Positions 1,561 through 35,787 of a stretch of 64,000 nt of DNA are shown here, in pieces (the stretch's first letter is position 1; every line of letters begins with the position of its first letter). The translations under genes were made by a program, and so were the position numbers. Under the pieces are notes generated by a model. It saw only the letters and a list, made by a program, of their open reading frames with translations, was not told where the DNA came from and searched no databases. The stretch comes from Thermodesulfobacteriota bacterium (GTDB taxonomy: Bacteria > Desulfobacterota > BSN033 > UBA1163): assembly GCA_041947025.1 (NCBI GenBank), contig JBHGBJ010000004.1, forward strand, positions 15,837 through 79,836. The letters run 5' to 3'.

Positions 1561-1660
1561 ATCAGATAATGCCTGCCGGCAGGCAGAGACATCAGGACAC
1601 CAGGTGATCAGGTCGACGGATTTCTTCCTTCCGGGAGCCTGATATGCTGATTGCCTGCTA
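1561..1660. repeat. inverted 8-mer array (ATCAGGnn / CCTGATnn) containing a TGCCTGCCGGCAGGCA palindrome
   Basis: Units atcaggac accaggtg atcaggtc are mirrored by cctgatat gctgattg cctgctat. A 16-bp perfect palindrome lies at 1570-1585. Confidence 0.6.
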
Positions 1661-1677
1661 TCCACAGGAAAGGGACG

Positions 1678-2313
1678 ATGTTTCGATATCTCGTGATAGA
1701 GGGTCCCGTCGGCGTTGGCAAAACCAGTCTGACAACGCTTCTGGCTAAGGAGTTCAACGCCCGATGTATCTTAGAAAAATCTGAAGAGAACCCTTTTCTT
1801 TCCCAATTCTACCAAGATCGCAAAAAATATGCTTTTCAAACCCAGGTCTTTTTTTTACTGAACCGCTTCCAACAGCAGAGGGAAATTGCCCAGCTCGATC
1901 TGTTCAACCAGGTGACCCTTTGCGACTACCTCTTTGCCAGAGACAGGATATTCGCCTCCCTGAATTTAAATGACGATGAGCTTGCCCTTTACGAACAGAT
2001 CTTCCATCTTCTAACCGGACAAATCCCCTCTCCGGACCTGGTGGTCTTCTTGCAGGCAAAGCCGGAGGTGCTGCTTCATCGGATCAGGTCAAGAAATGTT
2101 CCTTATGAGAAGGGGATTGATTTCGACTATCTCAAGACCTTGACAGAGGCCTACAATTACTATTTCTTCCACTACGACCAAACTCCTCTTCTCGTGGTCA
2201 ATACCAGTGAAATCGATTTCGTGAATCGAGAAGAAGATTTCGCCCGGTTGGTCCGAGAGATTAAACAGATGAGAAAGGGGACGTGGCACTTCATCCCCAT
2301 GAGATCCAAATAA
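1678..2313 (+). CDS. deoxynucleoside kinase (dGK/dCK family)
   Basis: IEGPVGVGKTS P-loop; ENPFL..FY.D, FQTQVFFLLNR, PDLVVFLQA. ATG 1678 follows an AAGGGA RBS. Confidence 0.93.
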   Translation: MFRYLVIEGPVGVGKTSLTTLLAKEFNARCILEKSEENPFLSQFYQDRKKYAFQTQVFFLLNRFQQQREIAQLDLFNQVTLCDYLFARDRIFASLNLNDDELALYEQIFHLLTGQIPSPDLVVFLQAKPEVLLHRIRSRNVPYEKGIDFDYLKTLTEAYNYYFFHYDQTPLLVVNTSEIDFVNREEDFARLVREIKQMRKGTWHFIPMRSK

Positions 2314-2480
2314 CCGAAATCCCCTGCCTGCCGGCAGGCAGGCAAATTCCAAATCCCAAGCACCAGATTCCAAATAAATCCCAATAACCAAATCCTAATT
2401 CTCAAACCAAACCGTTTTGATCATTGGATATTGGAAATTCGGGTTCATTTGGTACTTGAAGTTTGGAAATTGAAATTTAA
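2311..2480. repeat. inverted heptamer array (AAATCCC-like / TGGAAAT-like) with a 20-bp palindrome at 2323-2342
   Basis: aaattcc aaatccc aagcacc agattcc ... mirrored by tggatat tggaaat ... tggtact tgaagtt tggaaat. Lies between convergent genes. Confidence 0.8.
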
Positions 2481-2729
2481 TTAACCTTCTGGAGTTGAAG
2501 AAGCTCCTCCTTCTTTGGCTCCTTCTGGCCTAGGGGCCTCTGGAGTCACCACAGGAGGCTTTTCCTTGACCGGAGGCTTCTCGGGCTTCTTCTTACTCAC
2601 CTCTTTGGCCGCCTCTGTCTTCACGGTCGATGTGGAAGGTGGCAAGAGCCCCTTGGCTCGAAGCTTCTTCCTCTCCTTTTTCCTTTTTCTCCTCCTGGCA
2701 ATTTCCCGGTCCCTTTCACGTCTTGGCAT
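2481..2729 (-). CDS. small basic hypothetical protein (Arg/Lys-rich N-terminus, Pro/Lys/Glu-rich tail)
   Basis: 82-aa ORF with a good RBS (GGGAGG) upstream of the ATG. Function unknown. Confidence 0.7.
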   Translation of the reverse strand: MPRRERDREIARRRKRKKERKKLRAKGLLPPSTSTVKTEAAKEVSKKKPEKPPVKEKPPVVTPEAPRPEGAKEGGASSTPEG

Positions 2730-2747
2730 AGAAACCTCCCTTTCTTC

Positions 2748-2878
2748 AAATTCGGAATTCGCCTGCCTGCCCTGCCTACCACAGGCTGGCGCAGGCAGGG
2801 AGTGCGGGATTCGAAGTAAGGATTTTCATTCCGCATTCTCCATTCCCTGCCCGTCCGCCAGGCGGGCGCAATCCGCAT
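2748..2878. repeat. inverted heptamer array (AATTCGG / CATTCCG) carrying three CCTGCC-type palindrome inserts, two of them nested
   Basis: aattcgg aattcg[..]g agtgcgg gattcga ... cattccg cattctc cattc[..]cg caatccg. Confidence 0.8.
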
Positions 2879-3488
2879 GAGACTTCGGTAAGCGGCACAG
2901 ACGGCTGATCTCTTCCATCACGCGGCGGGTAAGGGAGACCGCATCCGATTCCTTCTCTGCAAAAAGGGGGGGGCCCATGCGTACCTCTACCCGTCTTCTC
3001 CATCCCAACCTCTCCCCATATCGTATGCCCACGGGGACAAAAGGAATCTCGTGCTGCAACTCCTCCTGAAAACCCAAGATCATCCGAAGGAGTCGGCTCT
3101 TGCCCGATCCCACGCCATCTCGGAAATAGGTTCCTTCCGGAAAGATGACGATCTTCTGACCGTCCTTCAATAAAGAGAGAAGAGACCTGAAAGAGTTCAA
3201 GGTGCGGATCGTCTGTTGACGATCGACCGGAATGCCTCCCAGAAGGATCAGGTAATTTCGAATCAGCGGATATTTAAAAAGCTCCCTCTTCGCTACAAAG
3301 TGAAGCAGAGGTTTGACGGCTAAGCTGACGACAGGGATATCCGTCCAGTATTGGTGCTTGGGGAGGATGATCACGGGTCCCTGATCGGGAAGAACCTCCT
3401 CTTTCTCCGTCTCAATCCGATAAACGCTCTTAAAGACGACCCGGGCAATCCATCGCGTAGCCAAGTAGACAAAAGGATTTCTTTCCAT
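2826..3488 (-). CDS. lysophospholipid acyltransferase (PlsC family)
   Basis: HQYWTD (HxxxxD), AKRELF, GGIPVDR and IFPEGT motifs. Confidence 0.92.
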   Translation of the reverse strand: MERNPFVYLATRWIARVVFKSVYRIETEKEEVLPDQGPVIILPKHQYWTDIPVVSLAVKPLLHFVAKRELFKYPLIRNYLILLGGIPVDRQQTIRTLNSFRSLLSLLKDGQKIVIFPEGTYFRDGVGSGKSRLLRMILGFQEELQHEIPFVPVGIRYGERLGWRRRVEVRMGPPLFAEKESDAVSLTRRVMEEISRLCRLPKSHADCARLADGQGMENAE

Positions 3489-3494
3489 TGAAAA

Positions 3495-3678
3495 ATCGTT
3501 GGGTCGTTGAGTTCGTTATGTCCCTGCCTACTGCCTGCCGGCAGAGGAGGCGCTTGGACCGTTCGTATCGTTACTCGTTCAGTACCAGTAAGAAAGATCG
3601 GAACGAGATGAAATGATCTCAACGATCTTTGAACTTAAACGATCTTAACCATCTTAACGTTCCAAACGATCATAACGT
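3495..3678. repeat. inverted 9-mer array (TCGTTnnnn / nnnnAACGA) with a CCTGCC-type insert at 3523-3550
   Basis: tcgttgagt tcgttatgt c[..]cgcttgga ccgttcgta ... aacgatctt aaccatctt aacgttcca aacgatcat. Confidence 0.7.
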
Positions 3679-4281
3679 TTAATAGGAATCGGAACTGTCC
3701 TCTTTGGGAATCATGGAAGGCGCTTCCGTGCCCATCCATTCCTTCTTGGCTCGTTTGGCTGCAGCGATCCCCGCTTTGAGTGCATCTCGATTCAATTTCT
3801 CTGTGCCTTTGGGCACCCGGCCAAGCACGGCGGATTCCACCGCTTTTGGGGAAACAATGGGCGTTAATTGGGTCAGGGCGCCCAAGGCAATGATGTTGGC
3901 GACCATCTCTCTCTTGAACTTTTCCCGAGCAATTCGGGTAAACGGAATCTGGAAGGCCTTCGCAATGGGGAGCTGGGTGACGAAGGTCGAATCGACAATG
4001 AGGACGCCCTCGGGCTTGAGGTCGGAATAAAAGTCGTCGCACGATTTTTGGTTCATCGCGAGAAGGAGATCGAGTTTCATCGCCTCCGGATAATCGATCT
4101 CCTCATCGCTCACGATCACCTCTGCTTTGCTCGACCCCCCTCTGGCCTCTGGCCCATAACTCTGGGTCTGTGCCACATATTTACCGTCATAAATTCCAAT
4201 CGCTTCCGCCAAGATAATCCCCATCAGGATCAATCCCTGTCCTCCTGAACCGCTCAACCGAATTTCGTACCGAGAACCCAT
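3679..4281 (-). CDS. korC: 2-oxoacid:ferredoxin oxidoreductase gamma subunit
   Basis: GSGGQG, QSYGPEARGG and NIIALGAL motifs; operon position. Confidence 0.9.
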   Translation of the reverse strand: MGSRYEIRLSGSGGQGLILMGIILAEAIGIYDGKYVAQTQSYGPEARGGSSKAEVIVSDEEIDYPEAMKLDLLLAMNQKSCDDFYSDLKPEGVLIVDSTFVTQLPIAKAFQIPFTRIAREKFKREMVANIIALGALTQLTPIVSPKAVESAVLGRVPKGTEKLNRDALKAGIAAAKRAKKEWMGTEAPSMIPKEDSSDSY

Positions 4282-4373
4282 TCTTTCTGCTCCTCACATC
4301 CAAAGATCCTTTTCAGATCTGGTACGCCTGAAACTTCGCTGATCTTCGAAATCATCTGCCGAATGCACGACAC

Positions 4374-5219
4374 TCAAGTTTTTAGACTCCCGGTGGCAGC
4401 TTTGGCCCGCTCCCGGACCTTTTCGTATTCATCCTGATACACCGGAAGCTCTTTATCCACCAATACTCCGATAACGATCTTATCCTTCAATTCCTCTGGC
4501 TTCATCTTGGCAGCCTTCTCCACAGGCACGGCATAATCCCGTTGCCACTCCATCATCTCAACCGCCGAACCCAAACGGTTCTGTCTTCCATACTGGGTGT
4601 GGCAGTGGGCGATCACCTCCACCACGGAAAAACCCGGCTTCAAAAAAGCCTTCTCCATCAGGCTATCCAGAAGTTTGGCGTGATAGACGGTTCCCCTTCC
4701 GACAAAGACCGCCCCTGCCGTGACGGCCAATTCAGAGATCCTGAAATCCTGCTCGATATTGGAATAGACAGTGGTCGCCGACCTCATTCCATAAGGGGTT
4801 GTCGGGGAGTATTGTCCGCCGGTCATTCCGTAGATGCTGTTATTGACAATGATGGCCGTGACATCGATATTTCTTCGGGCTGCATGAATGAAGTGATTTC
4901 CTCCGATCGCCACGGCATCGCCATCGCCCATCACCACGATCACCTTGAGGCTGGGCTTGGCCAGCTTTACACCGGTGGCAAAGGCGAGGGCGCGGCCATG
5001 AGTCGTATGCAGGGTGTTAAAATCCACATAGACCGGAAGTCTTCCCGAACATCCGATTCCGGATACGAGAACGATCTCGTCCTTTTGATAACCGATCCGA
5101 TCGATCGCCCGGATCAGTGCACCCAGCATAATTCCGATCCCGCAGCCCGGACACCAGACGTGCGGAAATTTCTTGTCATGGCGAAGATATTCATGGATCA
5201 ACTTGGTAATCTCCGGCAT
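4374..5219 (-). CDS. korB: 2-oxoacid:ferredoxin oxidoreductase beta subunit (TPP-binding)
   Basis: WCPGCG, SGIGCSG, HTTHGRA and GDGD..IGGNH TPP motifs. Start reassigned to ATG 5219, overlapping the korA stop, with a GGAGG RBS. Confidence 0.93.
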   Translation of the reverse strand: MPEITKLIHEYLRHDKKFPHVWCPGCGIGIMLGALIRAIDRIGYQKDEIVLVSGIGCSGRLPVYVDFNTLHTTHGRALAFATGVKLAKPSLKVIVVMGDGDAVAIGGNHFIHAARRNIDVTAIIVNNSIYGMTGGQYSPTTPYGMRSATTVYSNIEQDFRISELAVTAGAVFVGRGTVYHAKLLDSLMEKAFLKPGFSVVEVIAHCHTQYGRQNRLGSAVEMMEWQRDYAVPVEKAAKMKPEELKDKIVIGVLVDKELPVYQDEYEKVRERAKAATGSLKT

Positions 5220-6361
5220 CAGGATACCTCCCTGATTCGATTCAGGATCTCCTGGGGAGTGATGATCGTCCCGTCCACTTTGTTGAGGGTGAACACCTTT
5301 GCAATATTTCGGTTCACCCGTTTCACTTCCCTTGAGATCTGACCCATATTCATCTCGGGGACCAGAAGGATTTTCGATGTTTGAAGGACCTTCTCCACGG
5401 CGCCTCTCGCAAAGGGCCACAGGGTGATCAGCTTAAGAAGCCCCACCTTTATTCCCTTTTCCCTCGCCTCCACGACGGCCCTCTTCGCCGATCGGGCCAC
5501 ACAGCCGTAGGCAATGATCGTCATCTCGGAGTCCTCCGTTTGAAAATATTCAACCATCTGAATTTCCAAATAATGCTGACTGATTTTACGATGAAGCCTG
5601 TCGATAAAAGGCCCGATCTCATCGGGTCTTAACGTGGGAAACCCTCGTATGTCGTGGGTCAGGCCGGTCACGTGATATCGATAACCCTCCCCGAAGCTGG
5701 CCATGGCCGGGACTCCGCTTGGGGTATCCTCGTAGGGAATATACCATTCCGGCGGCACCGTGGGTTTGATCCGATCGACAATCTCCACCTCCTCTTTTTC
5801 TGACAGAACCATCTTCTCCCGCATATGGGCAACGACTTCGTCGATTAACAGGACGACTGGGTTTCTAAATTTCTCGGACAGATTGAAGGCCTTGATGGTC
5901 ATGTCATAACATTCGCGGATGGTCGAAGCGGAAAGGCCGATGATGGGATGATCCCCATGGGTTCCCCACCGGGCTTGCATCACATCGCTTTGAGAGGGAA
6001 GAGTGGGAAGGCCTGTGCTGGGCCCTCCTCTCATCACATTGACGATGACACAGGGAACCTCGGCAATCGCTGCAAATCCCAAGTTCTCCTGCATCAGCGA
6101 AAATCCCGGCCCGCTGGTCGCTGTCATCGACTTCACCCCTGCCAGGGAAGCGCCGATCACGGCACCGAGGCTTGCGATTTCATCCTCCATCTGGATGAAG
6201 GTTCCGTCCACTTGGGGAAGCTTGACCGATAGTTTTTCGGAGATCTCCGTGGCCGGGGTAATGGGGTATCCAGCAAAGAAACGGCATCCGGCCCGAAGCG
6301 CCCCCTCTACCACCGCCTCATTACCCTGTAGTAAAACTTCTTTCAGATTCCGTTTCCTCAC
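5219..6361 (-). CDS. korA: 2-oxoacid:ferredoxin oxidoreductase alpha subunit
   Basis: GNEA, AGYPITP, QMEDE, TATSGPG and RGGPSTG motifs. Start placed at GTG 6361 (uncertain). Confidence 0.92.
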   Translation of the reverse strand: MRKRNLKEVLLQGNEAVVEGALRAGCRFFAGYPITPATEISEKLSVKLPQVDGTFIQMEDEIASLGAVIGASLAGVKSMTATSGPGFSLMQENLGFAAIAEVPCVIVNVMRGGPSTGLPTLPSQSDVMQARWGTHGDHPIIGLSASTIRECYDMTIKAFNLSEKFRNPVVLLIDEVVAHMREKMVLSEKEEVEIVDRIKPTVPPEWYIPYEDTPSGVPAMASFGEGYRYHVTGLTHDIRGFPTLRPDEIGPFIDRLHRKISQHYLEIQMVEYFQTEDSEMTIIAYGCVARSAKRAVVEAREKGIKVGLLKLITLWPFARGAVEKVLQTSKILLVPEMNMGQISREVKRVNRNIAKVFTLNKVDGTIITPQEILNRIREVS

Positions 6362-6605
6362 TCTTTTCCTCTTCTTTCTTCTTCTCCTTCGTCTTTTTTT
6401 CGACCGTGATGGCGAAATCCGGACACCGGATTTCGCACCATCCGCAATTGATGCATTTCTCAATCTCCCTTACATAAGGATACCCTGCTTCATCTTTGGC
6501 CAGAACGCCGGTTGGACAAAATGCAACGCAGATACCGCATCCCTTACACCAAGCCTTATAGATGTCAATCCTCGATTCTTCCTTTTTCTTCCTGATCTCT
6601 GCCAT
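6321..6605 (-). CDS. korD: 2x[4Fe-4S] ferredoxin, delta subunit
   Basis: CKGCGICVAFCP and CINCGWCEIRCP. Confidence 0.9.
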   Translation of the reverse strand: MAEIRKKKEESRIDIYKAWCKGCGICVAFCPTGVLAKDEAGYPYVREIEKCINCGWCEIRCPDFAITVEKKTKEKKKEEEKSEETESERSFTTG

Positions 6606-6820
6606 AAGACATCACCTGACTTTGTGAAACTTCTCTCACCTATCTTGTCTCACCTATTTATATATGAAAGTTACAGGGGTTGTCAACATAACCCAAGCCC
6701 CCTTGACAAAAAATTTTCTGTTAGTTAAACAGACTCAAGCTCGAACCTGTTCATTCGTAATGATTTTCAGGGGAGCAATCCTTAGAGATTGTTTTCATCA
6801 ATATGGATTGGAGGATTTGC

Positions 6821-8605
6821 ATGGAGATTTCAGCGCGTTATGTATTTCGGTGTACCAATTGCGGCAAGAAGATTCCGTGGCCCCTTTCCAAGAGCGATCT
6901 GGGCATTTCGGACTGGGAGGAGCCCGGGGGCGGGAGCCTCTATCCCTACGAGAAGTGCTGGTGCGGCTGGGGTAAATTCATCCGGTGCGAAGACCTCGAA
7001 GCGGCCCGGGGCCAGGAGAAGCCGAGGCTGGAGGCCCAGATCAAGGTCAAGACAGATCATGCGAGGTACGAGAAGCTGCCGGTTGGGCAGATTCACCCCA
7101 ATCCCAAGCAGCCCCGGAAGTTCTTCGATAAGGTGGCCTTGCAATCGTTGGCCAATTCGATCGGGACGATTGGGTTATTGGAAGATATCCTGGTTCGGCC
7201 GGATAAGGGCAACGGGGGCTATGAGATTGTGTTGGGCGAGAGGCGGTGGCGAGCGAGTCAGCTTTCGGAGTCAGGGACGATCAGCAGCAAGATTGTGGAT
7301 TTGACGGATGAGGAGGCGCGGTTGATTTCGTTGGTGGAGAACTTGCAGCGGGAGAATCTGACGGAGGTGGAGGAGGCCTTCTCCTTCAAGAGCTACATTG
7401 ATGGGGGGATGTCGGTGGAGGAGGTGGGGCAGGCTCTGGGGAAGATGGATGACCGGGTGGCGGGCAAGCTCAAGACGTTAAGCACGCATTATTATGTGCG
7501 GTTTCAGGAGAATCGGATCGAGGAGTTGACGAAAGACAATGAGAATTTGAAGTCGGAGTTAAGGGCCTTGCAGAGTCAGCATCGGGTACAATATGCCACG
7601 CAGATCCTTTCGTCGAAGGAGGGTTTGGTGGAGGCGATGAATGAGGGATGGGAGTTTGTGGCTGAGCTTTCGGGCGGAGCGTTCGTCAAGGCCGCAGAGA
7701 AAGAAGGCCAGGTGAACTGGACGAGCACGTTCAAGGACGATGAGGTGGCTCCCTTTCTTAAAGCCTTTAGCAAAGATTATCCCAACATCAAGATCTTTCA
7801 TGAGAGGGAGCACGGCGCAGAGGCCATGGAGAGGCTCTTACGGGAGATCGTCAGCGGAGCGGTGGTAAACGATGTGGTGCAGATTCATCTGGAGTATGAA
7901 CGTGACTTTATAGGAATAGACGCATTGGAGCGTGCGAATTGGGCGGATTGGAAGGTCCTTCCGCAGCTGGTTTCCGAGGACGGCCGTCTGGTCAATATGG
8001 CCGCCTTCCCGTACTGCATCGGTTTTAACACCAAATTGCTGAAGAAGGAAGACGCTCCTGCGACCTGGGAGGCATTGCTTGATCCCAAATGGAAGGGAAA
8101 GGTTGTCATCGATTCACGGCCCCAGTGTTTTCTCAGTCTGGCCGGGGTATGGGGCCCTCAGAAGGTTCTCGACTATCTGAAGAAGCTCGGGCAGAATTCG
8201 CCCGTTTTTACGAGGGGGCAGACCGAGCTTGCAAACATGATGTCCGCCGGGCAATATATGCTTTCAGGCTCGTCGATGCTCCAGGCCCTTGTTTACGTGG
8301 CCCAGAAAGGCGGACCTGTCGCCTGGAATCTCGCAGACCCAATTCCCATCAACACGGTTGACTTTGCCGTTCTGAAAAAAGCGCAGCACCCGAACGCAGG
8401 CAAGGTGCTGCTCGCATGGCTCGGAAGCAAGGGATACAAAATGTGGGACGACATCAACTGGGGGAGAAGCGTCCCTTATGGCGGCACTCTTTTGGAAAAG
8501 GCCGCCCACGGGAAAAAGCTATCTTTCGATCCTCCCTATGAAGTGATACCTGACCGCCAGAAATACGAAGGAGAGATGATCAAGGCCCTCGGGATTAAGA
8601 AGTAA
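6821..8605 (+). CDS. chimeric ORF: Zn-ribbon + ParB/Srx domain + coiled coil, fused to an ABC-type extracellular solute-binding domain
   Basis: CTNC...CWC; PNPKQPRK, GERRWRA and ENLQRENL are ParB motifs. From about nt 7685: KAAEKEGQV, FNTKLLKKEDAPATWEALLDPKWKGK, KKAQHPNAGK (Fe3+/polyamine/thiamine-type binding protein). GGAGG RBS before ATG 6821. Confidence 0.75.
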   Translation: MEISARYVFRCTNCGKKIPWPLSKSDLGISDWEEPGGGSLYPYEKCWCGWGKFIRCEDLEAARGQEKPRLEAQIKVKTDHARYEKLPVGQIHPNPKQPRKFFDKVALQSLANSIGTIGLLEDILVRPDKGNGGYEIVLGERRWRASQLSESGTISSKIVDLTDEEARLISLVENLQRENLTEVEEAFSFKSYIDGGMSVEEVGQALGKMDDRVAGKLKTLSTHYYVRFQENRIEELTKDNENLKSELRALQSQHRVQYATQILSSKEGLVEAMNEGWEFVAELSGGAFVKAAEKEGQVNWTSTFKDDEVAPFLKAFSKDYPNIKIFHEREHGAEAMERLLREIVSGAVVNDVVQIHLEYERDFIGIDALERANWADWKVLPQLVSEDGRLVNMAAFPYCIGFNTKLLKKEDAPATWEALLDPKWKGKVVIDSRPQCFLSLAGVWGPQKVLDYLKKLGQNSPVFTRGQTELANMMSAGQYMLSGSSMLQALVYVAQKGGPVAWNLADPIPINTVDFAVLKKAQHPNAGKVLLAWLGSKGYKMWDDINWGRSVPYGGTLLEKAAHGKKLSFDPPYEVIPDRQKYEGEMIKALGIKK

Positions 8606-8668
8606 GGAGATTCCAGAGAAAATAGAAACAAGTATCACGAATGTAGCCACGCCAGCCTTGCCTTAACT

Positions 8669-8741
8669 CCCCCTTCCCCCTCTTAACCTAAGAGGGGGAG
8701 AGCGGAGGGGGCGTTAGGAAGAGGAGGTAAGGAGGGGTTAT
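8669..8741. repeat. REP-like hairpin element (CCCCCTCTTA-acc-TAAGAGGGGG family)
   Basis: Perfect stem; a homologous direct copy lies at 31611-31682. Confidence 0.75.
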
Positions 8742-8785
8742 CATTCGTGTCATTCGTCTTTAAACTATCGCAGGAGGGGATGACG

Positions 8786-10165: not shown

Positions 10166-10878
10166 CCCTTCTTTTCGGCGCTGCTTCGTCTGATCTTAAA
10201 CCGTTTGGAAAGGGGACGTCTTCTGAGGAGGACATAGGTTGCCCCTGCGCCGCCGTCGCAGCGCCTTGCGCTCGAATAGGCGACCACCCATTTTCGCCAC
10301 GGGCCGTGGGTCAACCACTCGATCACCTTTTTCTTTAGGACCGGCTCTGAAGGCGAGGATAGCCCGCGACCATGGACGATGAGAACACCCCTCTTGCCGG
10401 CAGTCACCGCCCATTTTAAAAACTTCTCAAAGACTTCCCTGGCATCCTCCGCATATAAGCCGTGAAGGTCCACATAGGCTTGAATCGAGAAATCTCCCTG
10501 ATGAAGCCGCTTTGCAATCGATGGATGGACATGATACCCCGTGCCTTCGATATATTCAGGTGTATCGGAAACATTAAAGCCCTCTCCAAATCTCACAAGA
10601 TTCTTAAGCTTCTTCAAAATCTCAAGATCTTCGCTGTCTCGGGTACCTTCCGGCAGCTCGATCTGGAAGACCCTCTCAACCGTCTTATCCCTTGAGATCG
10701 GTTTCACCCCGTCCATCGCCTCCTTAAAAAGCTCTTCCTCCGATTTGGTAGGGGGCTTGGGATCACGATCGGGCATATCCGCATGGCGACGCTCAGGAAT
10801 AGAGAAGGACTCGTCTTTGAGCAGGGCTTTCAGGTCTTGGAAGGACTTGGTGGTAATTGAAGATTTTTTGGACTTCAT
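10162..10878 (-). CDS. Smr/MutS2 domain protein
   Basis: VDLHG, LIVHGRG.SS, PVLKKKV and DGGAGATYVLL. Confidence 0.92.
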   Translation of the reverse strand: MKSKKSSITTKSFQDLKALLKDESFSIPERRHADMPDRDPKPPTKSEEELFKEAMDGVKPISRDKTVERVFQIELPEGTRDSEDLEILKKLKNLVRFGEGFNVSDTPEYIEGTGYHVHPSIAKRLHQGDFSIQAYVDLHGLYAEDAREVFEKFLKWAVTAGKRGVLIVHGRGLSSPSEPVLKKKVIEWLTHGPWRKWVVAYSSARRCDGGAGATYVLLRRRPLSKRFKIRRSSAEKKG

Positions 10879-15225: not shown

Positions 15226-15240
15226 CAGAGGCAGCCACTG

Positions 15241-21740: not shown

Positions 21741-21871
21741 CCGCTGGGTCTTGCCCGTAGCGCTTTTTGGCAGGTCCGAAATGAATTCGATCCACCGCGG
21801 ATATTTATATTTTGCCAACCGGTGAAGCTCCCCGCCCACAGGGCGGGGATTGCGGGGCACTTGCCGGTCAA
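21741..21871. repeat. GC-rich hairpins resembling IS200/IS605-type ends or REPs
   Basis: CCCCGCCC-aca-GGGCGGGG perfect stem at 21830-21848 and a GGGTCTTGCCCG motif at 21746-21757. No transposase nearby. Confidence 0.45.
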
Positions 21872-22065
21872 GACCCCATCGTTTACATCAGCGGTCCGCA
21901 AAATAGTCGGCCGCATTGAAAAGTTCTTCGGGTTCTTCGCGAGCCATTTTCTCCTCCTCAGGCCTCAGAATACCAATTTTTTTCAAAAAATGATATGTCC
22001 CATTAACTGGAATATCAACCAAACCCCCAACCCTCATCCCGTTGCCGGTTCCCTTAGAGGCAGTA

Positions 22066-25882: not shown

Positions 25883-26061
25883 AGATTTGCCTCTCTTCGT
25901 TTAAGACAATAATCGATTCCTCTATCTGCGTATTCATCATGATCTTCCCAGTTTCTGCCTCTGCAAAACCGTTCTCTTTCTCCATGCTTGAAGTTACTAC
26001 GATAAGCTGTTAAGAAAGGGAAAAATGAAGGGGAGAAGGCGGATTCATGAAAGGAGATACG

Positions 26062-28416: not shown

Positions 28417-29601
28417 CTAACCGCTCATCTCCCCGTCTGTGATCCCCAGAATATAGAGAATGTTCTTCAGGCGGGCCCTGCCCAGACTCATATGGGCCGC
28501 GCGCTCAAGCGACTTCTTCGCATTATACGCAATGCCTAGGCCGGCCTGGCCAAGCATTAAGATGTCATTGGCCCCATCCCCGATGGCCACGGTCTGATCA
28601 AGAAAAACGCCTTCTTCATCGGCAACGAGGTTGACAATTCTTGCCTTGTAGGTGTTATCCACGATCTTTCCCAAGATTCTGCCCGTAAGGGTTGAGTTCT
28701 TCATTTCGAGTTGATTGGCGAAGGCGCGATCCAGTCCCAGCTTCTCTTTGAGAAAGTCAGCAAAGTAGTGGAATCCTCCGCTGACCAGGACCAATTTGTA
28801 GCCCAACTTCTTGAGGGTCGTCACTAATTCTTCGGCCCCTTCAGAGAGTCTCATCTCGTTCCGGATCTTCTCCATCTCCTTCACCTTCAGTCCTTTGAGA
28901 AAGGCCACTCGCTGCAGTAGCCCTTCTTCAAAATCGAGGTCCCCTCTTCCCACCTTCTCGGTGATTCTCGAAACCTCCTTGAATACGCCTGCCCTTTGGG
29001 CCATCTCATCGATCATCTCCATATCGATCAGGGTGCTATCCATATCGAAGAAGATTAAGCGCTTGTTCTTGCGATAGGCCTCCATGTTCTGGAGGGCGAG
29101 ATCGATATTGAGCTCGTGGCTTTTGGCAATCACTCTCTCTTTCAAACGGCTCAGGCTTTCAACCTTGTTCACATCGATGGTCAGCTCCACGCAACTGGCA
29201 CGGTGGCGGGTGAGATTGCTGATCATCTCGATGTTGGCGTTCTCTTCTCCCAGGATGCTCGTCAGCTCAGCCAAAGCCCGGGTATCCCCGAAGTATGTGA
29301 GGACGAAGAGATTCTTATTATTCCTGGCCTTCACCTCTTTTTCAGAGAAGACTTGAAAATTGAGCGTCAGATGGAGCCGGTTGGCTTCAAAGAGAAGGTC
29401 CTTGAGAACGCCGTCTTTCGATTGTTTGGCTTCGCTCATGTCTAAGAGAAAGGAAAGACCAAGGAAATCCTGAAGGGAGGCCTGCTCGATATCCACAATC
29501 TCCACATGATTTTCCACGAGGATCTTGCTGAAGGCAGCGGTGATTCCAGGGTGATCCGGACCGGAAGCGGTCACCATCACAAAATCTTTTTCTTCATCCA
29601 T
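28417..29601 (-). CDS. serB: phosphoserine phosphatase with two ACT domains
   Basis: ACT (SGPDHPGITA); HAD motifs FDMDSTL, VSGGF and GDGAND. Confidence 0.94.
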   Translation of the reverse strand: MDEEKDFVMVTASGPDHPGITAAFSKILVENHVEIVDIEQASLQDFLGLSFLLDMSEAKQSKDGVLKDLLFEANRLHLTLNFQVFSEKEVKARNNKNLFVLTYFGDTRALAELTSILGEENANIEMISNLTRHRASCVELTIDVNKVESLSRLKERVIAKSHELNIDLALQNMEAYRKNKRLIFFDMDSTLIDMEMIDEMAQRAGVFKEVSRITEKVGRGDLDFEEGLLQRVAFLKGLKVKEMEKIRNEMRLSEGAEELVTTLKKLGYKLVLVSGGFHYFADFLKEKLGLDRAFANQLEMKNSTLTGRILGKIVDNTYKARIVNLVADEEGVFLDQTVAIGDGANDILMLGQAGLGIAYNAKKSLERAAHMSLGRARLKNILYILGITDGEMSG

Positions 29602-29941
29602 TCTCTGATCCTTCTCATCGATTCCGTATGAGGAATTGCACCGAAAACCCAACCGTGCTCAAAACTTATCCAAATATGACGGCGTTGTCAAGGTCATTAG
29701 TAGCCGATGTAAGCATCTCTTTTCCGTGACGATGCTCACCTTCGATGAGGAAGACAGTCCGGCTGAGAAAGTTTTGGAGCGAAACCTTTAACAGATTCAG
29801 TATAAGCGTTGCAAAAACTCATGAAAACCCTACATTTAAACCAACAAGAAAGTTATCCATTCCACGATAAGAAGATCGCAATTCCAAAACTTTGGAAGTC
29901 TGGACTGTCTTCTTCGGCATTCTCACGAATTTGGAGAAGCT

Positions 29942-31567
29942 TCAGTAGCCGATCGCACAGCCATCCTTTCTTCTGTCAGACGCTCCCAGGAGAACATTCT
30001 GGTCCCGGTCGAAGTAGATCGCCTGTCCGCCGCCAACCTGATTGACCTCGGGAAGGTCTGTCAAGATCTTGTGGCCTTTCCTGGAAAGGGCGGCGATCGT
30101 CTTCTCGGAAATCCCGTCTTCGATATAAACTTCTCTCTCTTTAAAATGCCTCACCCGCGGAGCATCCACAGCTTCCTGAAGATTCATTCCGAAGTCGATC
30201 AGGTTCGCAAGAAACTGGACATGGCCCTGTGGCTGCATATCCCCGCCCATCACGCCAAAACTGATCAAGAATTGATTGTCTTTAAAGACCATGCCCGGAA
30301 TAATCGTATGCATCGGGCGTTTGTGGGGCTCAAGCCTGTTGAAATGTTTAGGGTCCAAAGAGAATGACTTGCCCCGGTTTTGCAAAACAATCCCCGTGCC
30401 ATCGACGACGATACCCGATCCAAAGGGCATAAAGATGCTGCTGATAAAGGAAACCGCATTTCTCTCTTTGTCAACGCAAGTCACATAGACCGTTTCAGAG
30501 GCTTCCCTGTTGAAAGAGAAGGAAGAAGGAGGGGAAGCCTTGCGGATATCAATCTTTTCTCTGATTTTTCTGGCGTAATCCTTCGAAAGGAACCGCTCGA
30601 CAGGAATCGTTTCGAATTCGGGATCGGTGATAAAACGATCCCTGTCTCCGAAGGCTGCCTTCTTGGCCTCGATCAGCAGATGGAGATATTCAGGGCTGTT
30701 CTGTCCCAGGCTTCCGATATCATACCCCTCCAGGATGTTGAGCATTTCCAGGGCCGTTATCCCCTGACCGTTAGGGGGCAATTCAAAAATGGTATATCCG
30801 CGATACTCCGTCGACACCGGCTCCACCCAGGTTGTCGAATGGTCTTTAAAATCCTGACGGGAGAGAAATCCTCGATACCGGTCAGAAGCCTTGACGATCG
30901 CATCACAAATCTCTCCTCCATAAAAAGTCTCGATTCCATCTCGGACGATCTTCTGATAAGTGCGCGCAAGATCCTTATTCAGAAATATCTGCCCGGGCCG
31001 GGGGGCTTTCCTGTCGATGAGAAACGTCGTGGCCGAGCTTTCAGAAGAAAGGAGAAGGGGTTCAGCCTCTTTCCACTCTCCGGCGATAACCTGAGTCACG
31101 GGAAAACCATTTTCCGCGTGGTCAATGGCATCCTCAAATACCTCACCGAGGCTGAGGGTCCCGTGGCGCTCCAATGCCTGAGCCCATCCATGGAGGGCGC
31201 CCGGGACGGTTACCGTTAAAATACCTCTTTCGGGAATTTGTTGAACGCCTCTCTCTTTGAAGCATTGAACCGTTGCCCGATAAGGGGCGCGACCACTTGC
31301 GTTCATGCCGACCAGGCGTTTCTCTCTTGCCAAATAGATCAGGGCAAAGGCATCGCCTCCCAGTCCCACAGAATAAGGCTCGACCACACTCAGGACACTG
31401 ACCATGGCGATGGCCGCATCGATGGCGTTTCCGCCCTTCAACAGCTTTTTATACCCCGCAAGAGTCGCAAGAGGCTGACTCGCTGCCACCATCCCATGTT
31501 TTCCCATGAGTACCGATCGCTGCGAAGCGTGCTTCCATTCTCTCCTTTGCGGATAGGTAAATCTCAC
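29942..31567 (-). CDS. ggt: gamma-glutamyltransferase
   Basis: GGNAIDAA, TVPGAL, ELPPNGQG, catalytic Thr in ETVY, KRPMHT, GGDMQPQGH, SDRRKDG. Confidence 0.95.
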   Translation of the reverse strand: MRFTYPQRREWKHASQRSVLMGKHGMVAASQPLATLAGYKKLLKGGNAIDAAIAMVSVLSVVEPYSVGLGGDAFALIYLAREKRLVGMNASGRAPYRATVQCFKERGVQQIPERGILTVTVPGALHGWAQALERHGTLSLGEVFEDAIDHAENGFPVTQVIAGEWKEAEPLLLSSESSATTFLIDRKAPRPGQIFLNKDLARTYQKIVRDGIETFYGGEICDAIVKASDRYRGFLSRQDFKDHSTTWVEPVSTEYRGYTIFELPPNGQGITALEMLNILEGYDIGSLGQNSPEYLHLLIEAKKAAFGDRDRFITDPEFETIPVERFLSKDYARKIREKIDIRKASPPSSFSFNREASETVYVTCVDKERNAVSFISSIFMPFGSGIVVDGTGIVLQNRGKSFSLDPKHFNRLEPHKRPMHTIIPGMVFKDNQFLISFGVMGGDMQPQGHVQFLANLIDFGMNLQEAVDAPRVRHFKEREVYIEDGISEKTIAALSRKGHKILTDLPEVNQVGGGQAIYFDRDQNVLLGASDRRKDGCAIGY

Positions 31568-31610
31568 TCTATGTTCTCCTTTCCCCTTCCCCCCTCCTCC
31601 CTAACCTTCC

Positions 31611-31682
31611 CCCCCTTCCCCCTTTTATCCTAAGAGGGGGAGAACGAAGGGACCGTTGGAAGGAAGGGGCAGGAAGGGTTAT
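31611..31682. repeat. REP-like hairpin element, homolog of 8669-8741
   Basis: CCCCTTCCCCCTTTTATCCTAAGAGGGGGAG...GGGTTAT aligns by eye with the 8.7-kb copy. Confidence 0.75.
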
Positions 31683-31755
31683 GAAATTGATCAGTTGACT
31701 GCGGCTCCCTTTTTTTGATATCAAATAATATAACATAAAACAGGGGGATCGTAAG

Positions 31756-33429
31756 ATGGCGGAGTTAACGAAAGAAGATTTTATATCCGTGTCCAAGGTC
31801 TTTGGTCTCAATATCAATGATCCGCATATGGAAGAACTATACGTCTATGTCCGGAAGATCTTGCCCACTCTTAAGAGGATTGAAGAGCTCCATTTGACCG
31901 ATATGGAGCCTACGATACCCCGCGACTGTTTCTCCCCCTCCGGAGACGATGCCACAACGTCATCGCGGGGGAGTAAAATGACGAAGTCTTCTGTCAGGAA
32001 GAAGAGAGTGGTGGAGAGGGATTCGGCAGGGCTTTGCTTTCTCACCGCAGGAGAGCTTTCGAGGCTCATTCAAAATAAGGAATTATCCCCGGTGGAGGTG
32101 GTCAGGGCCCATCTCTCCCGTATCGAAGCCTTGGAGCCCAAATTAAACTCTTTTATCACCCTGTTAGCCGACCAGGCGCTCTCTGCCGCTAAAAAGGCAG
32201 AAAAGGAGATTCAGGCAGGCAGATCCCTCGGCCCTCTTCATGGGATCCCTTTCGGGCTGAAAGATCTTTTTTATGTCAAAGGAATTCGAAATACCTCTGG
32301 CTCTAAGATATTCGATCGATTCATCCCTGATTTCGATAGCACGATGGCTCGAAGGCTGAAAGAAGCGGGGGCGATTCTCATCGGAAAGCTGAACCTGCAT
32401 CCTCTTGCTTACGGTCCCACAGGAGAGAATGAGGACTATGGCCACATGCACAATCCCTGGAACCCGGCGCGGATTGCCGGAGGTTCTAGTGGAGGTTCGG
32501 GATCCTCTGTGGCTTCCGGCCAGTGCACTTTTGCCATGGGCAGCGATACGGGCGGCTCCGTTCGAATCCCGGCTGCTCTATGCGGCATTGTGGGTTTTAA
32601 ACCCACCTACGGCCGCCTCAGCCGCTACGGGATCACTCCTCTTGCCTGGAGTCAGGACCATGCGGGTCCCATGGCTCGCACCGTTGAAGATTGCGCCTTG
32701 GTCATGAATGCGGTTTCAGGGTATGATCCCAATGACCCCGCCTCTGCTCATCTCCCGGTTCCCGATTACACCAGGGCTCTCACGGGCCGACTGAAAGGTT
32801 TGCATGTCGCCATGATTAAAGAATTTCTTGAAGGGCCCCTTGAACCCGAGGTGGCGAAATGCGTTGAAAAGGCGGCGGAGAAATTAGGTGAACTCGGCGC
32901 AATCCTCTCTGAAGTCTCCTGGCCGATCTACGATTATGCGATGCCGATTGCAAGCGTCATCCAGATGGCTGAAGCAACCGCTTACCATAGCAGACTCCTC
33001 CGAGAAAAAGCCTCCCAGATAGATCTCTCTGCCCGACTCCGCCTGGAAGCAGGTATTTTCATTTCTGCCACGGATTATGTTCAAGCCCAAAGGGCACGCA
33101 CCCTCTTTTGTCGCCGAAGCCTCGAACTCTTCAAGGAGACCGATCTGCTTGCAGTCCCGACCGTGCCTGTAACTGCATTTCCAATCGGTACGACCAAATC
33201 AGAGGTGAATGGCCAAAAAGTGAATATTATCTCTTTGCTTACCGGGTATACCCGTCCCTTTAATCTCAATGGCTTTCCCGCGATCACCGTGCCCTGTGGG
33301 TATTCAAAGGAAGGCCTTCCCGTTGGCCTCCAGCTTGTGGGCCGCCCCTTCGACGAGGAGACGGTGTTACGAGCCGCCCATGCTTACGAGCAGGCCACAG
33401 ATTGGCACATGAGAAGGCCACCCCTTTAG
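31756..33429 (+). CDS. amidase-signature enzyme (GatA/AtzE-like) with a fused N-terminal GatC/AtzG-like segment
   Basis: LHGIPFGLKD, GGSSGGS and GSDTGGSVRIPA triad motifs. Internal RBS+ATG at 31978. Confidence 0.9.
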   Translation: MAELTKEDFISVSKVFGLNINDPHMEELYVYVRKILPTLKRIEELHLTDMEPTIPRDCFSPSGDDATTSSRGSKMTKSSVRKKRVVERDSAGLCFLTAGELSRLIQNKELSPVEVVRAHLSRIEALEPKLNSFITLLADQALSAAKKAEKEIQAGRSLGPLHGIPFGLKDLFYVKGIRNTSGSKIFDRFIPDFDSTMARRLKEAGAILIGKLNLHPLAYGPTGENEDYGHMHNPWNPARIAGGSSGGSGSSVASGQCTFAMGSDTGGSVRIPAALCGIVGFKPTYGRLSRYGITPLAWSQDHAGPMARTVEDCALVMNAVSGYDPNDPASAHLPVPDYTRALTGRLKGLHVAMIKEFLEGPLEPEVAKCVEKAAEKLGELGAILSEVSWPIYDYAMPIASVIQMAEATAYHSRLLREKASQIDLSARLRLEAGIFISATDYVQAQRARTLFCRRSLELFKETDLLAVPTVPVTAFPIGTTKSEVNGQKVNIISLLTGYTRPFNLNGFPAITVPCGYSKEGLPVGLQLVGRPFDEETVLRAAHAYEQATDWHMRRPPL

Positions 33430-33431
33430 GT

Positions 33432-34886
33432 CTATTTGCCGAAGCCCTTCAGGAGATAGGAAAATTTCTCCCGGGATTTACGGGCCACCTCCGGACTCGG
33501 CATGTTGACCACAGGAAAGCGATCGCGCCATTCATAGGGACGAGTCGCATCGATAATGGCCCTCGAGTTGGTCAATTTACCCTTCGCCTTGTCCTCGGGA
33601 TGGATACGCGGATCAAGGGCGGTTGACCAGGCATGATGGATGATATCGATCGAATTCGCCGGATCGGATCGAGTCAACATGGCCCACATCAGCTCTTCAA
33701 GGTTGGACACGTCGATGTCATCGTCCACCACGATCACATATTTCCCCGCATAGGCCCCTACGTGACACTGGGAGGCAACATGTCCCACCTGGGTGGAGTG
33801 ACCTCCGTACCGCTGCTCAATGGCAATGGCGAGGAGCATTCTCGAATTCCCGACTTCGTGGGCCCAAACCGCTTTAACCCCTGAGAGGCCTGCCTTCTCC
33901 AGCTCCTGTTTAAGAAGGGAGGATCGGACAATGGCCCGGAACCGTGCATGCTCGTCCGGAGGACGCTGGGGAGAAACCCCAAGGAGGATGGGATTGTTCC
34001 TGTGATAGATCGCTTTGACCTCCAGGAAGGGCTCATCGCGGACGTCGCTGGCATAATAGCCTGTCCACTCGCCGAAAGGGCCTTCTTTCCATCGCTTCTT
34101 AGGATCAACATAGCCTTCAAGAACAATCTCCGCATGGGCGGGAAAGGGAAGACCGGTCACTTTGCCCTGGATGACAGGATAAGGTTTTCCTCTCAAGGCT
34201 CCTGCAATCTCGTACTCGCTGATTCCGTAGGGAGCTTCATTGCTGGCCATGAGGAAGAGGAGCGGGTCGCCGCCCAGGACGATCGCCGCCGGCATGGGCT
34301 GATTGCGGGCGATATACTTGTCACGGTGGACACGGCCGTGTTTCCCAGGCGATATGTAAAAACCGACGTTCTTTGCGTCATGGGCCATCACTCGATAAGT
34401 CCCCACGTTTATCCACTTATCATCCGGATCCACGGTGACGGTAAAGCATCCGGTCCCTATGTAGCGTCCTCCGTCCTTTTCGTGCCATTTGGGTGCAGGA
34501 AAAGAAAGAACATTGACTTGATCACCTGTCTGAATATTCTCCAGCACAGGGCCGCTCTTGACGACCTCGTAGGGAACGGGCTTCCCCTCTTGAAAAGCCT
34601 TGTGAACTTCGTCGGAAAGCTCAAGCTTGGATAGCTCGGACGGGAACCCGAAGGTCATATTCTTTCTCTGCCCTCCGAAGAAGTTAACCAGAACCCTGTA
34701 CCCCTCGGGGTATCCCGGAATCTGATCGAAGAGGGCGGCTGGGGCAGGATCCGCATGTTGAAGAACCTCAGACGCCATACCAATATCCTCTTGCCATGTG
34801 GCTCCTTTCACATCCCGCACTTCGTCCAGCTTTCTGGCCTGATCGAGCCATCCCCTCAGGTCATCATAAAGAAATTTGGGTTTCAT
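33432..34886 (-). CDS. UbiD-family decarboxylase
   Basis: DGGRYIGT, NVGTYR, KHG, AEIVLEG, EGPFGEWTGYY and IIDATRP all canonical. Confidence 0.94.
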   Translation of the reverse strand: MKPKFLYDDLRGWLDQARKLDEVRDVKGATWQEDIGMASEVLQHADPAPAALFDQIPGYPEGYRVLVNFFGGQRKNMTFGFPSELSKLELSDEVHKAFQEGKPVPYEVVKSGPVLENIQTGDQVNVLSFPAPKWHEKDGGRYIGTGCFTVTVDPDDKWINVGTYRVMAHDAKNVGFYISPGKHGRVHRDKYIARNQPMPAAIVLGGDPLLFLMASNEAPYGISEYEIAGALRGKPYPVIQGKVTGLPFPAHAEIVLEGYVDPKKRWKEGPFGEWTGYYASDVRDEPFLEVKAIYHRNNPILLGVSPQRPPDEHARFRAIVRSSLLKQELEKAGLSGVKAVWAHEVGNSRMLLAIAIEQRYGGHSTQVGHVASQCHVGAYAGKYVIVVDDDIDVSNLEELMWAMLTRSDPANSIDIIHHAWSTALDPRIHPEDKAKGKLTNSRAIIDATRPYEWRDRFPVVNMPSPEVARKSREKFSYLLKGFGK

Positions 34887-34911
34887 CTGTCATTCTCCTT
34901 TCTATTTCATG

Positions 34912-35661
34912 CTATTGAGATGCCATTAAATACTTTTCAAACCATGCAAATATCTTTTGCCAACCATCGACGGCAGCCTCAACGCGGTAGTTTGGCCTGT
35001 CTACGGAGAAAAAGGCATGACCGGCATTCTCGTAGGTATGAAACTCGTATGTTTTGTTGAAGCGTTTGAGCTCTCCTTCTATACGAGCCACATCCTGAGG
35101 TGACGGTGATTTGTCTTCCGCGCCGAACAAACCCAATACAGGACAGGCGAGATCCTTTGTCATGTCAATGGGAGCGACCGGCTGACGCTCTGTAAGATCC
35201 TCGGGTTTGGCAACGATCTTCCCTCCGTAGCAAACGACTGCGGCATTGATGCGCTTGATATTACAGGCCACGAGGTAGGCCTGTCGCCCACCCGAACAAA
35301 ACCCGATGACGCCGACTTTACCGTTGTGACAAGGCTGCGTCTCCAAGTAGTGAATAGCTCCTTCGATGTCGCCGATACATCGTTTGTCGGGCACCAGGCC
35401 AGCAGCCCGGACCTTTGCGGAGATTTCTTCAGGACTTCCCGGTCCCTCCCGATGATGGAGGTGAGGCGACAATGCCCCATATCCGTGATAGGCCAGCTTC
35501 CTTGTCATTTCTTTCGTGGCCTCATCCCAGCCCGGCATGTGATGAATCACAATAACCCCCGGGTAAGGTCCGCTTCCAAGGGGCCGCGCCAAGTACCCTT
35601 CAATCGGATCGCCGTTATGGCCACAAAAACCAATTTTCTCGGCTATCATCCCTTCGTACAT
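34912..35661 (-). CDS. dienelactone hydrolase family protein
   Basis: GFCSGG nucleophile motif; catalytic His in AGHAF. Confidence 0.92.
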   Translation of the reverse strand: MYEGMIAEKIGFCGHNGDPIEGYLARPLGSGPYPGVIVIHHMPGWDEATKEMTRKLAYHGYGALSPHLHHREGPGSPEEISAKVRAAGLVPDKRCIGDIEGAIHYLETQPCHNGKVGVIGFCSGGRQAYLVACNIKRINAAVVCYGGKIVAKPEDLTERQPVAPIDMTKDLACPVLGLFGAEDKSPSPQDVARIEGELKRFNKTYEFHTYENAGHAFFSVDRPNYRVEAAVDGWQKIFAWFEKYLMASQ

Positions 35662-35710
35662 CGCTCCTCCTTAATGAACGTCCTCCTCCATCTTCCCCGC
35701 CCATAATAAT

Positions 35711-35787
35711 CCCACCCACCCTCCCCTTGCATTAAGGCATGCCTGCCGCCTGCCTCCGGCAGGGGCAGGGGAGGCAAGGAGGGGTTA
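35711..35787. repeat. REP-like hairpin interrupted by a CCTGCC-type insert (35738-35769)
   Basis: CCTCCCCTT-gcatt-AAGG[insert]GGAGG. Confidence 0.75.

Follow-up and report, generated by a model that had tools for sequence, protein, structure and literature searches.

Introduction

Described pairs of a short hairpin repeat and an enzyme include SRM with Ssn, and repetitive extragenic palindromes (REPs) with REP-associated tyrosine transposases (RAYTs). Excerpts of Chenal et al. 2025 (PMC11893778) describe Ssn as encoded by a small single-domain GIY-YIG gene beside a 20-50 nucleotide (nt) hairpin repeat. In the same excerpts, such repeats are also scattered as tens to hundreds of solo copies, mostly in intergenic DNA. 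REPs are defined by a GTAG or CGTC tag at the palindrome end, and some are inserted within other small palindromes (excerpts of PMC3733652). Here, we describe a palindrome of 16 to 20 nt found repeatedly in a 64,000-nt stretch of DNA from a Thermodesulfobacteriota bacterium. We refer to the whole stretch as the window. It corresponds to C96:15837-79836 of genome G000 (hereafter 'this genome'; 4.65 Mb, 161 contigs, 50% GC, and 94.5% complete). The sequencing run containing the DNA is labelled soil metagenome. The palindrome proves to be a discrete insert that leaves no target duplication and that comes and goes between close relatives. Its letters recur unchanged in other phyla and on viral contigs, and GIY-YIG cassettes at tRNA genes regularly include it.

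Results

The palindrome is a discrete insert without target-site duplication

A preliminary description of the window reported copies at positions 1570, 2323, 2762, 2771, 2846, 3523, and 35738. All were found, with coordinates right to a few bases, and those at 2762 and 2771 form a single composite hairpin. The copies, one host structure, and one empty site are as follows.

1570..1585, no strand: short palindrome copy, a perfect 16-nt palindrome with core CCTGCCGGCAGG
2323..2342, no strand: exact 20-mer CCTGCCTGCCGGCAGGCAGG, 10 nt past a stop codon, where a long hairpin built of heptamers has its 5' base
2343..2478, no strand: host structure, an AT-rich long imperfect hairpin of heptamer-like units between convergent genes
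2762..2799, no strand: composite or degenerate insert, an imperfect hairpin within TTCGGAA/TGCGGAG-type heptamers
2846..2866, no strand: variant insert (CCTGCCCG...CGGGC type) within CGCAATC-type heptamers
3523..3550, no strand: nested or degenerate copy that breaks a 9-nt CGTT-phased repeat
21822..21876 (C96:37658-37712), no strand: palindrome-free copy of the host repeat family gtgaagctccccgcc..ggcggggcttgcggggcacttgccggtc, an empty site
35738..35769, no strand: nested double copy, CCTGCC-GCCTGCC-TCC-GGCAGG-GGCAGG, inside a C-rich/G-rich host hairpin

The copy at 1570-1585 has ATCAGG-like short repeats on either side and a gene (1651-2313) downstream. As single-stranded DNA, the 20-mer at 2323-2342 is predicted to fold into an 8-bp stem with a 4-nt loop (-8 kcal/mol). 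The pattern CCTGCC-N(0-20)-GGCAGG matches the window six times; the mean in 100 dinucleotide shuffles was 0.10, the maximum 1, and none of the 100 reached six. Scanning all 4.65 Mb with the same pattern, a check of the kind proposed in the preliminary description, gave 253 overlapping matches that merged into 191 loci. Note that, by the window shuffles, ~7 chance loci are expected genome-wide, and that some of the loose matches within coding DNA resemble chance hits. We counted 11 exact copies of the 20-mer in the genome. A single-letter variant with a G.T pair is present 10 times, and the reverse complement of this variant 11 times. Rfam 15 gave no match at gathering score across the whole window.

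We looked for empty sites by taking out each palindrome and searching the genome with its two 45-nt flanks joined together. For 32 of the 191 loci, this returned paralogues that lack the palindrome and run across the junction; 24 of these alignments were ungapped. At the 24 ungapped loci, the insert is 20 nt (13 loci), 19 nt (10), or 16 nt (1) long. For example, C48:4323 and its empty counterpart C110:29848 are 100% identical over 79 nt. Empty paralogues can be numerous, with 21 for C122:25778 and 18 for C108:1088. An ungapped alignment across the junction means that there is no target-site duplication. Hence, the lack of such duplications noted in the preliminary description is confirmed at 24 of the 191 loci, and the palindrome lacks this defining feature of miniature inverted-repeat transposable elements (MITEs). 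Displaced and intact tRNA-Asn halves at loci L179 and L195, in cassettes described below, also agree with duplication-free insertion. Some filled hosts share flank and insert alike, for instance those on contigs C91 and C102. Hence, not all copies are independent events. The empty site at 21822-21876 is the counterpart of filled copies at C122:25778 and C74:58712. The host family concerned is MITE-like, with more than 20 copies in this genome, a few of which carry the palindrome at the stem/loop junction.

Relatives provide further empty sites. The spacer containing the inserts at 2762-2799 and 2846-2866 can be aligned in G001 (same genus), G008, and G011, and both inserts are absent from all three. 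Deleting the insert thus restores the host where this is testable, as had been claimed, and two window copies have the empty orthologous sites that the preliminary description said should be sought. The spacers at 2323 and 3523 cannot be aligned in relatives, and host restoration there is read only from the heptamer or 9-mer phase. At these unalignable sites, the G008 spacer contains a palindrome copy of its own, set within an unrelated hairpin. Spacers orthologous to 2343-2478 in G001 and G011 hold other heptamer-built hairpins without the palindrome. These are alike in style and unrelated in sequence, so such structures turn over fast. Together, paralogous and orthologous empty sites bear out the tiny, non-autonomous insert without target duplication that was originally proposed.

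Copies favour intergenic DNA with structured and repeated flanks

Crude gene calls (greedy non-overlapping open reading frames (ORFs) of at least 100 amino acids, 87% coding) place 148 of the 191 loci in intergenic DNA, which makes up 13% of the genome. The palindrome thus shares with REPs and REPINs the feature of a high-copy, mainly intergenic hairpin. Loci are spread over intergenic classes roughly by class length, although divergent spacers hold somewhat fewer than their share (17 of 139 loci, compared with 21.5% of intergenic bases). We rejected a reading as terminators on account of this proportional occupancy. The median distance from palindrome to gene 3' ends is 70 nt, and the strand of the G.T variant shows no bias relative to genes in this genome (15 vs 12).

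We compared the 148 reconstructed intergenic sites with 1000 random intergenic 90-mers. The reconstructed sites fold better (mean -22.5 vs -18.4 kcal/mol, p 2.6e-10; GC 47.7% vs 45.3%). Flanks with at least three genomic matches, each of at least 24 nt, surround 35% of sites and 11% of controls. The earlier statement that every copy lies inside another repeat therefore survives in part: repeated flanks are about three times as frequent as among random intergenic sites, but at 35% the statement is too strong genome-wide, and most copies lie outside any detectable repeat.

Several host families recur. This genome has 46 NTS-like (CGTC-type) repeats, GTCATTCC...GGAATCCWG (for example at C139:10282-10310, C102:8481, and C146:15501), 30 of which are 26-28 nt long. 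Seven of the 46 hold the palindrome at one position, directly before GGAATCC, with different palindrome and host variants. Another 21-nt insert family, CTCGCCTCGGCGAAGCCTGGG, occupies the same position in five of the 46. Counting inserts of ~20 nt or longer, we see them in 16 of the 46. One NTS-like copy fits the published Neisseria NTS consensus. A second host is a perfect 28-nt palindrome, GTAGGGAACGCATATATGCGTTCCCTAC, which starts with GTAG and has 19 copies in the genome (such as C69:257, C74:232092, and C76:32155), 12 of them empty. At least four of the 19 carry palindrome-type inserts at AACG^CAT or the mirror position. Nested copies, such as that at 35738, indicate that the palindrome inserts into itself too.

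The 20-mer is identical across phyla and on viral contigs

We surveyed 55 genomes of the same taxonomic family for the 20-mer with no more than one mismatch. The palindrome is present in 44, at 1 to 83 copies. A single genus spans the range from 0 (three genomes that are 96-98% complete) to 83. The reversed motif had no match in the 55 family genomes or in 301 genomes of the phylum. In the phylum sample, 24 of the 301 genomes were positive; outside the family these numbered 19 of 291, mostly with 1-4 copies.

Across contigs of one genome per species, we found the exact 20-mer in at least 123 stretches; by arithmetic, ~0.5 copies are expected in the 596 Gb searched. Among the 80 matches listed are many groups of the Candidate Phyla Radiation (CPR), Bacteroidota, Omnitrophota, Planctomycetes, Gammaproteobacteria, Bdellovibrionales, Thermodesulfovibrionales, and Chloroflexi. 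Cultured Bacteroidota among the matches listed are Winogradskyella, Flagellimonas, Longitalea, and Flavivirga. In other phyla too, the 20-mer splits heptamer-like repeats and tRNA-like sequence. It is also found, exactly, in 40 stretches on 31 viral contigs.

The palindrome accompanies small GIY-YIG genes at tRNA genes

A search of metagenome contigs with a five-sequence nuclease alignment returned 561 relatives, of which we retained 80, with 44-61% identity over the best matching segment. The palindrome pattern lies no more than 100 nt from 40 of these 80 GIY-YIG genes, usually 16-58 nt upstream (reversed-motif controls, 0 and 1 of 80). A tRNA gene is located within 150 nt at 70 of the 80 loci (Arg 21, Leu 15, Asn 10, Lys 7, and others). 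In 20 loci inspected, the palindrome is usually inside a displaced 5' tRNA copy that closely precedes the nuclease ORF. For most Arg, Leu, Thr, and Met cassettes it is at the end of the D-loop, directly before the 3' D-stem. For Asn cassettes it precedes the anticodon stem. The layout is common to Arg, Leu, Asn, Thr, Met, and Lys cassettes. The perfect 20-mer is found at 17 of the 80 loci, and the G.T variant in the nuclease sense at 8, compared with one opposite variant; note that many G.T-variant loci are related tRNA-Asn cassettes and so not independent. Palindrome-negative cassettes often have other GC-rich palindromes at the same place (9 of 38 by a strict hairpin rule, more by eye). Separately, a second hairpin of 20-21 nt (CCTGTCTACCGACAGGTAGAG and variants) occurs in the D-loop of displaced tRNA-Arg or tRNA-Asn fragments, beside the main palindrome. 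It was seen at L179 (2410-2430) and also, upstream of the nuclease ORF, at L224, L253, L254, and L205.

Similar cassettes exist among relatives of this genome. Of 20 regions fetched around their small GIY-YIG genes, 9 have a tRNA gene. In G001 and G010, a displaced tRNA-Asn 5' half is broken by two palindromes, at AGCT^CAACC and GTAGCG^GGTGG. The nuclease ORF begins directly after the anticodon loop and is followed by an intact tRNA-Asn. In the same-genus relative, this ORF (L179:2107-2352) is 82 amino acids long. The arrangement recurs, with a single palindrome, in G105, a genome of a different family in the phylum. A small single-domain GIY-YIG gene with the repeat close by is seen at 40 of the 80 metagenomic loci and at L179, L195, and L201, and was not found in this genome. 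In G289, a GIY-YIG domain is followed 37 nt on by the palindrome (read as PACRQAG), in frame within a NOV_C domain, and this is the only palindrome copy in that genome. Pfam places the in-frame GIY-YIG within NOV_C (former DUF3883) at L199 (G289:C112, 1030-1330), where a short direct repeat, ccaaaccgc, flanks the palindrome. At L200 (G162:C37), a GIY-YIG domain is likewise in frame inside a larger protein.

The nearest solved structures to the nucleases are UPF0213 proteins (1ywl and 1zg2), then the structure-specific nuclease SLX1. NCBIfam has no name for these small proteins. A single-protein search of viral contigs matched only the protein itself. The small GIY-YIG nuclease at tRNA genes is the only gene that we found physically linked to the palindrome.

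Does the palindrome interrupt working tRNA genes? After we removed it from 123 genomic and 40 viral stretches, ARAGORN called no restored tRNA gene in any of them. We therefore dropped this idea; the tRNA-like hosts are fragments. At L167, what resembles a full tRNA-Met by eye is left uncalled by ARAGORN.

GIY-YIG and Y1 genes in this genome

The GIY-YIG matches in this genome are a UvrC-sized frame and one short gene.

C78:7785-8111 (L137 1450-1779), minus strand: 109-amino-acid UPF0213-like GIY-YIG gene, no palindrome within 1.5 kb

The product of this gene has 78-90% protein identity across 26 family genomes. It lies ~230 nt from what appears, by eye, to be a tRNA-Leu(CAA) 3' fragment; ARAGORN and Rfam call nothing there. 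A broad nuclease alignment (A1) was dropped as a probe, since it matched 162 of 301 genomes at 1e-5. At E 1e-20, a threshold set by eye, A1 matched, outside the family, 3 of the 19 genomes that have the palindrome and 20 of the 272 that lack it.

There are also five Y1_Tnp matches in this genome, one of IS200 size and four within open frames 274-316 amino acids long. One of the five scores 79.5, just under the 80 that the model for REP-associated tyrosine transposases requires.

C96:117187 (L002), no strand: RAYT-like Y1 gene, Y1_Tnp, ORF of 249 amino acids
C130:1550 (L003), no strand: RAYT-like Y1 gene, Y1_Tnp
C96:96744 (L004), no strand: RAYT-like Y1 gene, Y1_Tnp
C121:25723 (L005), no strand: RAYT-like Y1 gene, Y1_Tnp

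We recognized no flanking REPs of their own at these four RAYT-like genes. Half sites of the 28-nt GTAG palindrome were found near none of the five Y1 genes.

Discussion

Our best explanation, in which we have about even confidence taken as a whole, is that the palindrome is a tiny insertion element accompanying GIY-YIG tRNA cassettes, mobilized by such a nuclease and orphaned in this genome. The element would be ultra-short (16-20 nt, consensus CCTGCCTGCCGGCAGGCAGG), non-coding, and hairpin-forming. As further parts of the same evenly balanced proposal, it would be the commonest of several GC-rich mini-palindromes that go with small SLX1/UPF0213-like GIY-YIG cassettes, and its favoured hosts would be heptamer arrays, NTS-like CGTC repeats, the 28-nt GTAG palindrome, MITE-like hairpins, and its own copies. 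A cassette-type nuclease could recognize the hairpin in single-stranded DNA and cut at the helix boundaries. Hairpin copies might then be pasted, or copied, into other exposed hairpin DNA, so that spread occurs in trans, by analogy with the Ssn nuclease and the NTS/SRM repeats. The nuclease is thus a putative mobilizer of the solo copies. Since this genome has ~190 loci and no such cassette, its copies are orphans, and an earlier or transient source, such as a phage, may well have left them; this belongs to the same proposal and carries no more certainty than the rest of it. We are more tentative about a bolder version. The 20-mer might be among the smallest mobile DNAs, a bare hairpin excised or copied, and pasted in single-stranded form, by an SLX1-like single-domain GIY-YIG at the helix boundaries of further hairpins. 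Nuclease and hairpin would then be carried jointly through more than nine bacterial phyla and through phages, on cassettes by which tRNA genes are split and rebuilt, with nuclease clades paired to different mini-palindromes. We think this somewhat doubtful.

Many observations weigh against a role for the cassette nuclease. With a specific nuclease profile, no cassette nuclease is detected in this genome. No displaced tRNA fragment accompanies any of its 41 tRNA genes, and its tRNA-Asn locus shares upstream sequence with G001 and has no cassette, making it an empty site. The specific profile finds the nuclease in 35 of 44 palindrome-bearing and 7 of 11 palindrome-free family genomes, a weak association, and three palindrome-rich genomes are without it: G000 (46 copies), G011 (75), and G068 (47). 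A looser query gives 40 of 44 vs 3 of 11 (p 5e-5), where related genomes are not independent. Even so, the rank correlation of this looser query with palindrome number (rho 0.51) does not exceed that of Y1 genes (rho 0.56). More than 98% of copies are solo: a GIY-YIG start is near the exact 20-mer in one of the 123 genomic stretches listed (reversed control, 0) and on one of the 31 viral contigs. Four of the five sequences in the nuclease query had been chosen after the palindrome was seen beside them. The preliminary description took secondary-structure DNA as the target. That stands in so far as flanks are more structured than random, but the junctions show no excess of predicted stem/loop boundaries (41 of 148, vs 91 of 400 controls). 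GIY-YIG enzymes are not known to form a covalent DNA intermediate, and we know of no paste mechanism. The mode of NTS/SRM repeat spread, on which the analogy leans, is not shown in the excerpts of PMC11893778.

The main rival is a passive link. Displaced tRNA fragments could be neutral, hairpin-rich landing pads that tolerate insertions where intact tRNA genes would not, with another enzyme, or host replication and repair, as the mobilizer. The weak co-occurrence of nuclease and palindrome across the family fits this, as do the palindrome-rich genomes without nuclease (G000, G011, and G068), the fragmentary tRNA-like hosts, from which no intact gene was restored in 123 genomic and 40 viral stretches, and the other GC-rich palindromes at the same D-loop position. 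However, 17 of the 80 loci have a letter-perfect 20-mer, and 8 the G.T variant, next to nucleases only 44-61% identical to the query, which speaks for the palindrome being under selection in the cassette. The sense of the G.T variant (8 vs 1, in partly related tRNA-Asn loci) and the sole copy in G289, 37 nt from a GIY-YIG domain, point the same way. On balance, we consider a passive link unlikely. The preliminary description instead suggested, as a possibility, an HUH enzyme acting in trans, so that the palindrome would be a REP-like hairpin moved by a Y1 transposase (RAYT or IS200/IS605 TnpA) via single-stranded intermediates. Insertion without target duplication, a hairpin substrate, the near-threshold gene among the five Y1 genes (79.5 vs 80 bits), the correlation of Y1 and palindrome copy numbers in the family, and GTAG within the 3' arm of a common palindrome variant would all suit such an enzyme. 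Nevertheless, none of the five Y1 genes has the palindrome within its fetched 1.5-kb flanks, an association that the preliminary description said should be looked for, and Y1 genes are present in 9 of 11 palindrome-free family genomes as well as in 43 of 44 with the palindrome (p 0.10). Moreover, REPs are lineage-specific, and the 20-mer is identical across phyla. The GTAG or CGTC tag outside the stem, by which excerpts of PMC3733652 define REPs, was not found either: copies start CCTG and end CAGG, their flanks are diverse, and GTAG appears only within the 3' arm of one variant. A Y1 mobilizer is therefore improbable, and this part of the preliminary description is not supported.

Could solo copies instead be remnants of whole GIY-YIG cassettes that have lost their cargo, rather than insertions of a 20-mer? 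Cassettes do carry the palindrome, and at the CPR loci L028 and L043 a palindrome-bearing tRNA fragment sits 30-60 nt from an intact tRNA, a gap too short for a nuclease gene. Against this, the flanks of solo copies in this genome are contiguous in empty paralogues, with no tRNA or cassette residue. Only 5 of the 191 loci fall within 500 nt of a tRNA gene (~1.8 expected with 41 tRNA genes), and there is no displaced fragment in this genome. We judge cassette decay distinctly improbable. An immobile palindrome, either a selected structural motif (a terminator clamp or protein-binding site) or a recurrent product of (CCTG)n slippage, would account for the mostly intergenic location, the median distance of 70 nt from gene 3' ends, and the stable hairpin. 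It would not account for all-or-none presence with ungapped empty sites, for letter identity across phyla and viral contigs far above the chance expectation, for the absence of strand bias to genes and the filling of intergenic classes roughly by length, or for the in-frame copy within the protein of G289. This makes immobility very improbable indeed. The best explanation remains, to our minds, a tiny element that accompanies, and may have been moved by, GIY-YIG tRNA cassettes.

An identical 20-nt sequence, from CPR to Bacteroidota to a soil lineage, that inserts without duplication falls outside the described REP-RAYT and SRM-Ssn pairs and points to an unstudied route of mobility. Repeats nesting in repeats are a way to build mosaic repeat clusters. 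The small nucleases represent a second, tRNA-linked class of small GIY-YIG enzymes with a candidate cognate hairpin, relevant to Ssn-type single-stranded-DNA tools. If nuclease clades do pair with different mini-palindromes, they would provide a natural set of hairpin-addressed systems for cutting and inserting single-stranded DNA. For annotation, the palindrome accounts for odd GC-rich blocks of 16-20 nt in spacers, in tRNA-gene fragments, and, elsewhere, in proteins.

Comparison with known systems

Our literature search found no paper with the palindrome in a bacterial context, or describing the cassette; the supplements of the Ssn paper, which contain motif and homologue lists, were not covered. 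Searched as a sequence string, a 12-mer turned up only in two zebrafish papers. In size and nesting, the closest relatives may be the small dispersed repeats (SDRs) of Nostocaceae. These cyanobacterial repeats, reportedly the subject of work by Elhai et al. in 2008, are said to be ~20 nt long, proposed as mobile, and nested in other repeats. They are not known to have an associated enzyme. Mitochondrial GC clusters are also GC-rich mini-palindromes, spreading in AT-rich spacers. Free-standing GIY-YIG homing endonuclease genes offer a parallel to the cassettes, in that a nuclease ORF occupies a conserved gene whose function is preserved. Homing copies an element into the homologous site only, and so does not explain dispersal of the 20-mer to unrelated sites.

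Rickettsia palindromic elements (RPEs) resemble the palindrome in being palindromic repeats that can lie in frame within genes, which we see only in the NOV_C protein of a relative. According to excerpts of PMC3733652, RPEs are much longer, partly CGTC-tagged, and lineage-restricted. With REPs and REPINs, the palindrome has in common that these are short, intergenic, high-copy palindromes thought to move as single-stranded hairpins (excerpts of PMC3116915 and PMC3733652). It differs in that we found no RAYT gene flanking it in this genome, and in that its sequence is identical across phyla rather than lineage-specific.

The likeness to Ssn and SRM, as far as the excerpts of PMC11893778 describe them, is that a nuclease gene adjoins a hairpin repeat, for the palindrome in metagenomes and relatives though not in this genome, and that many solo copies exist. 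By the same source, the differences are that the palindrome has no oriented GTC-tagged flank, does not fit the SRM search motif HGTCWY...RNCYNB, and is perfect and identical across phyla. The SRM motif itself has 40 matches in this genome, compared with 37 in the reversed genome. The nuclease differs too. Here it is tied to split tRNA genes, and the word 'tRNA' does not occur in PMC11893778; among solved structures, it is nearest to UPF0213 and SLX1. The two kinds of repeat meet in this genome, where, judged against the consensus in those excerpts, one of the 46 NTS-like repeats fits the published NTS, and where the palindrome is found inserted inside NTS-like repeats.

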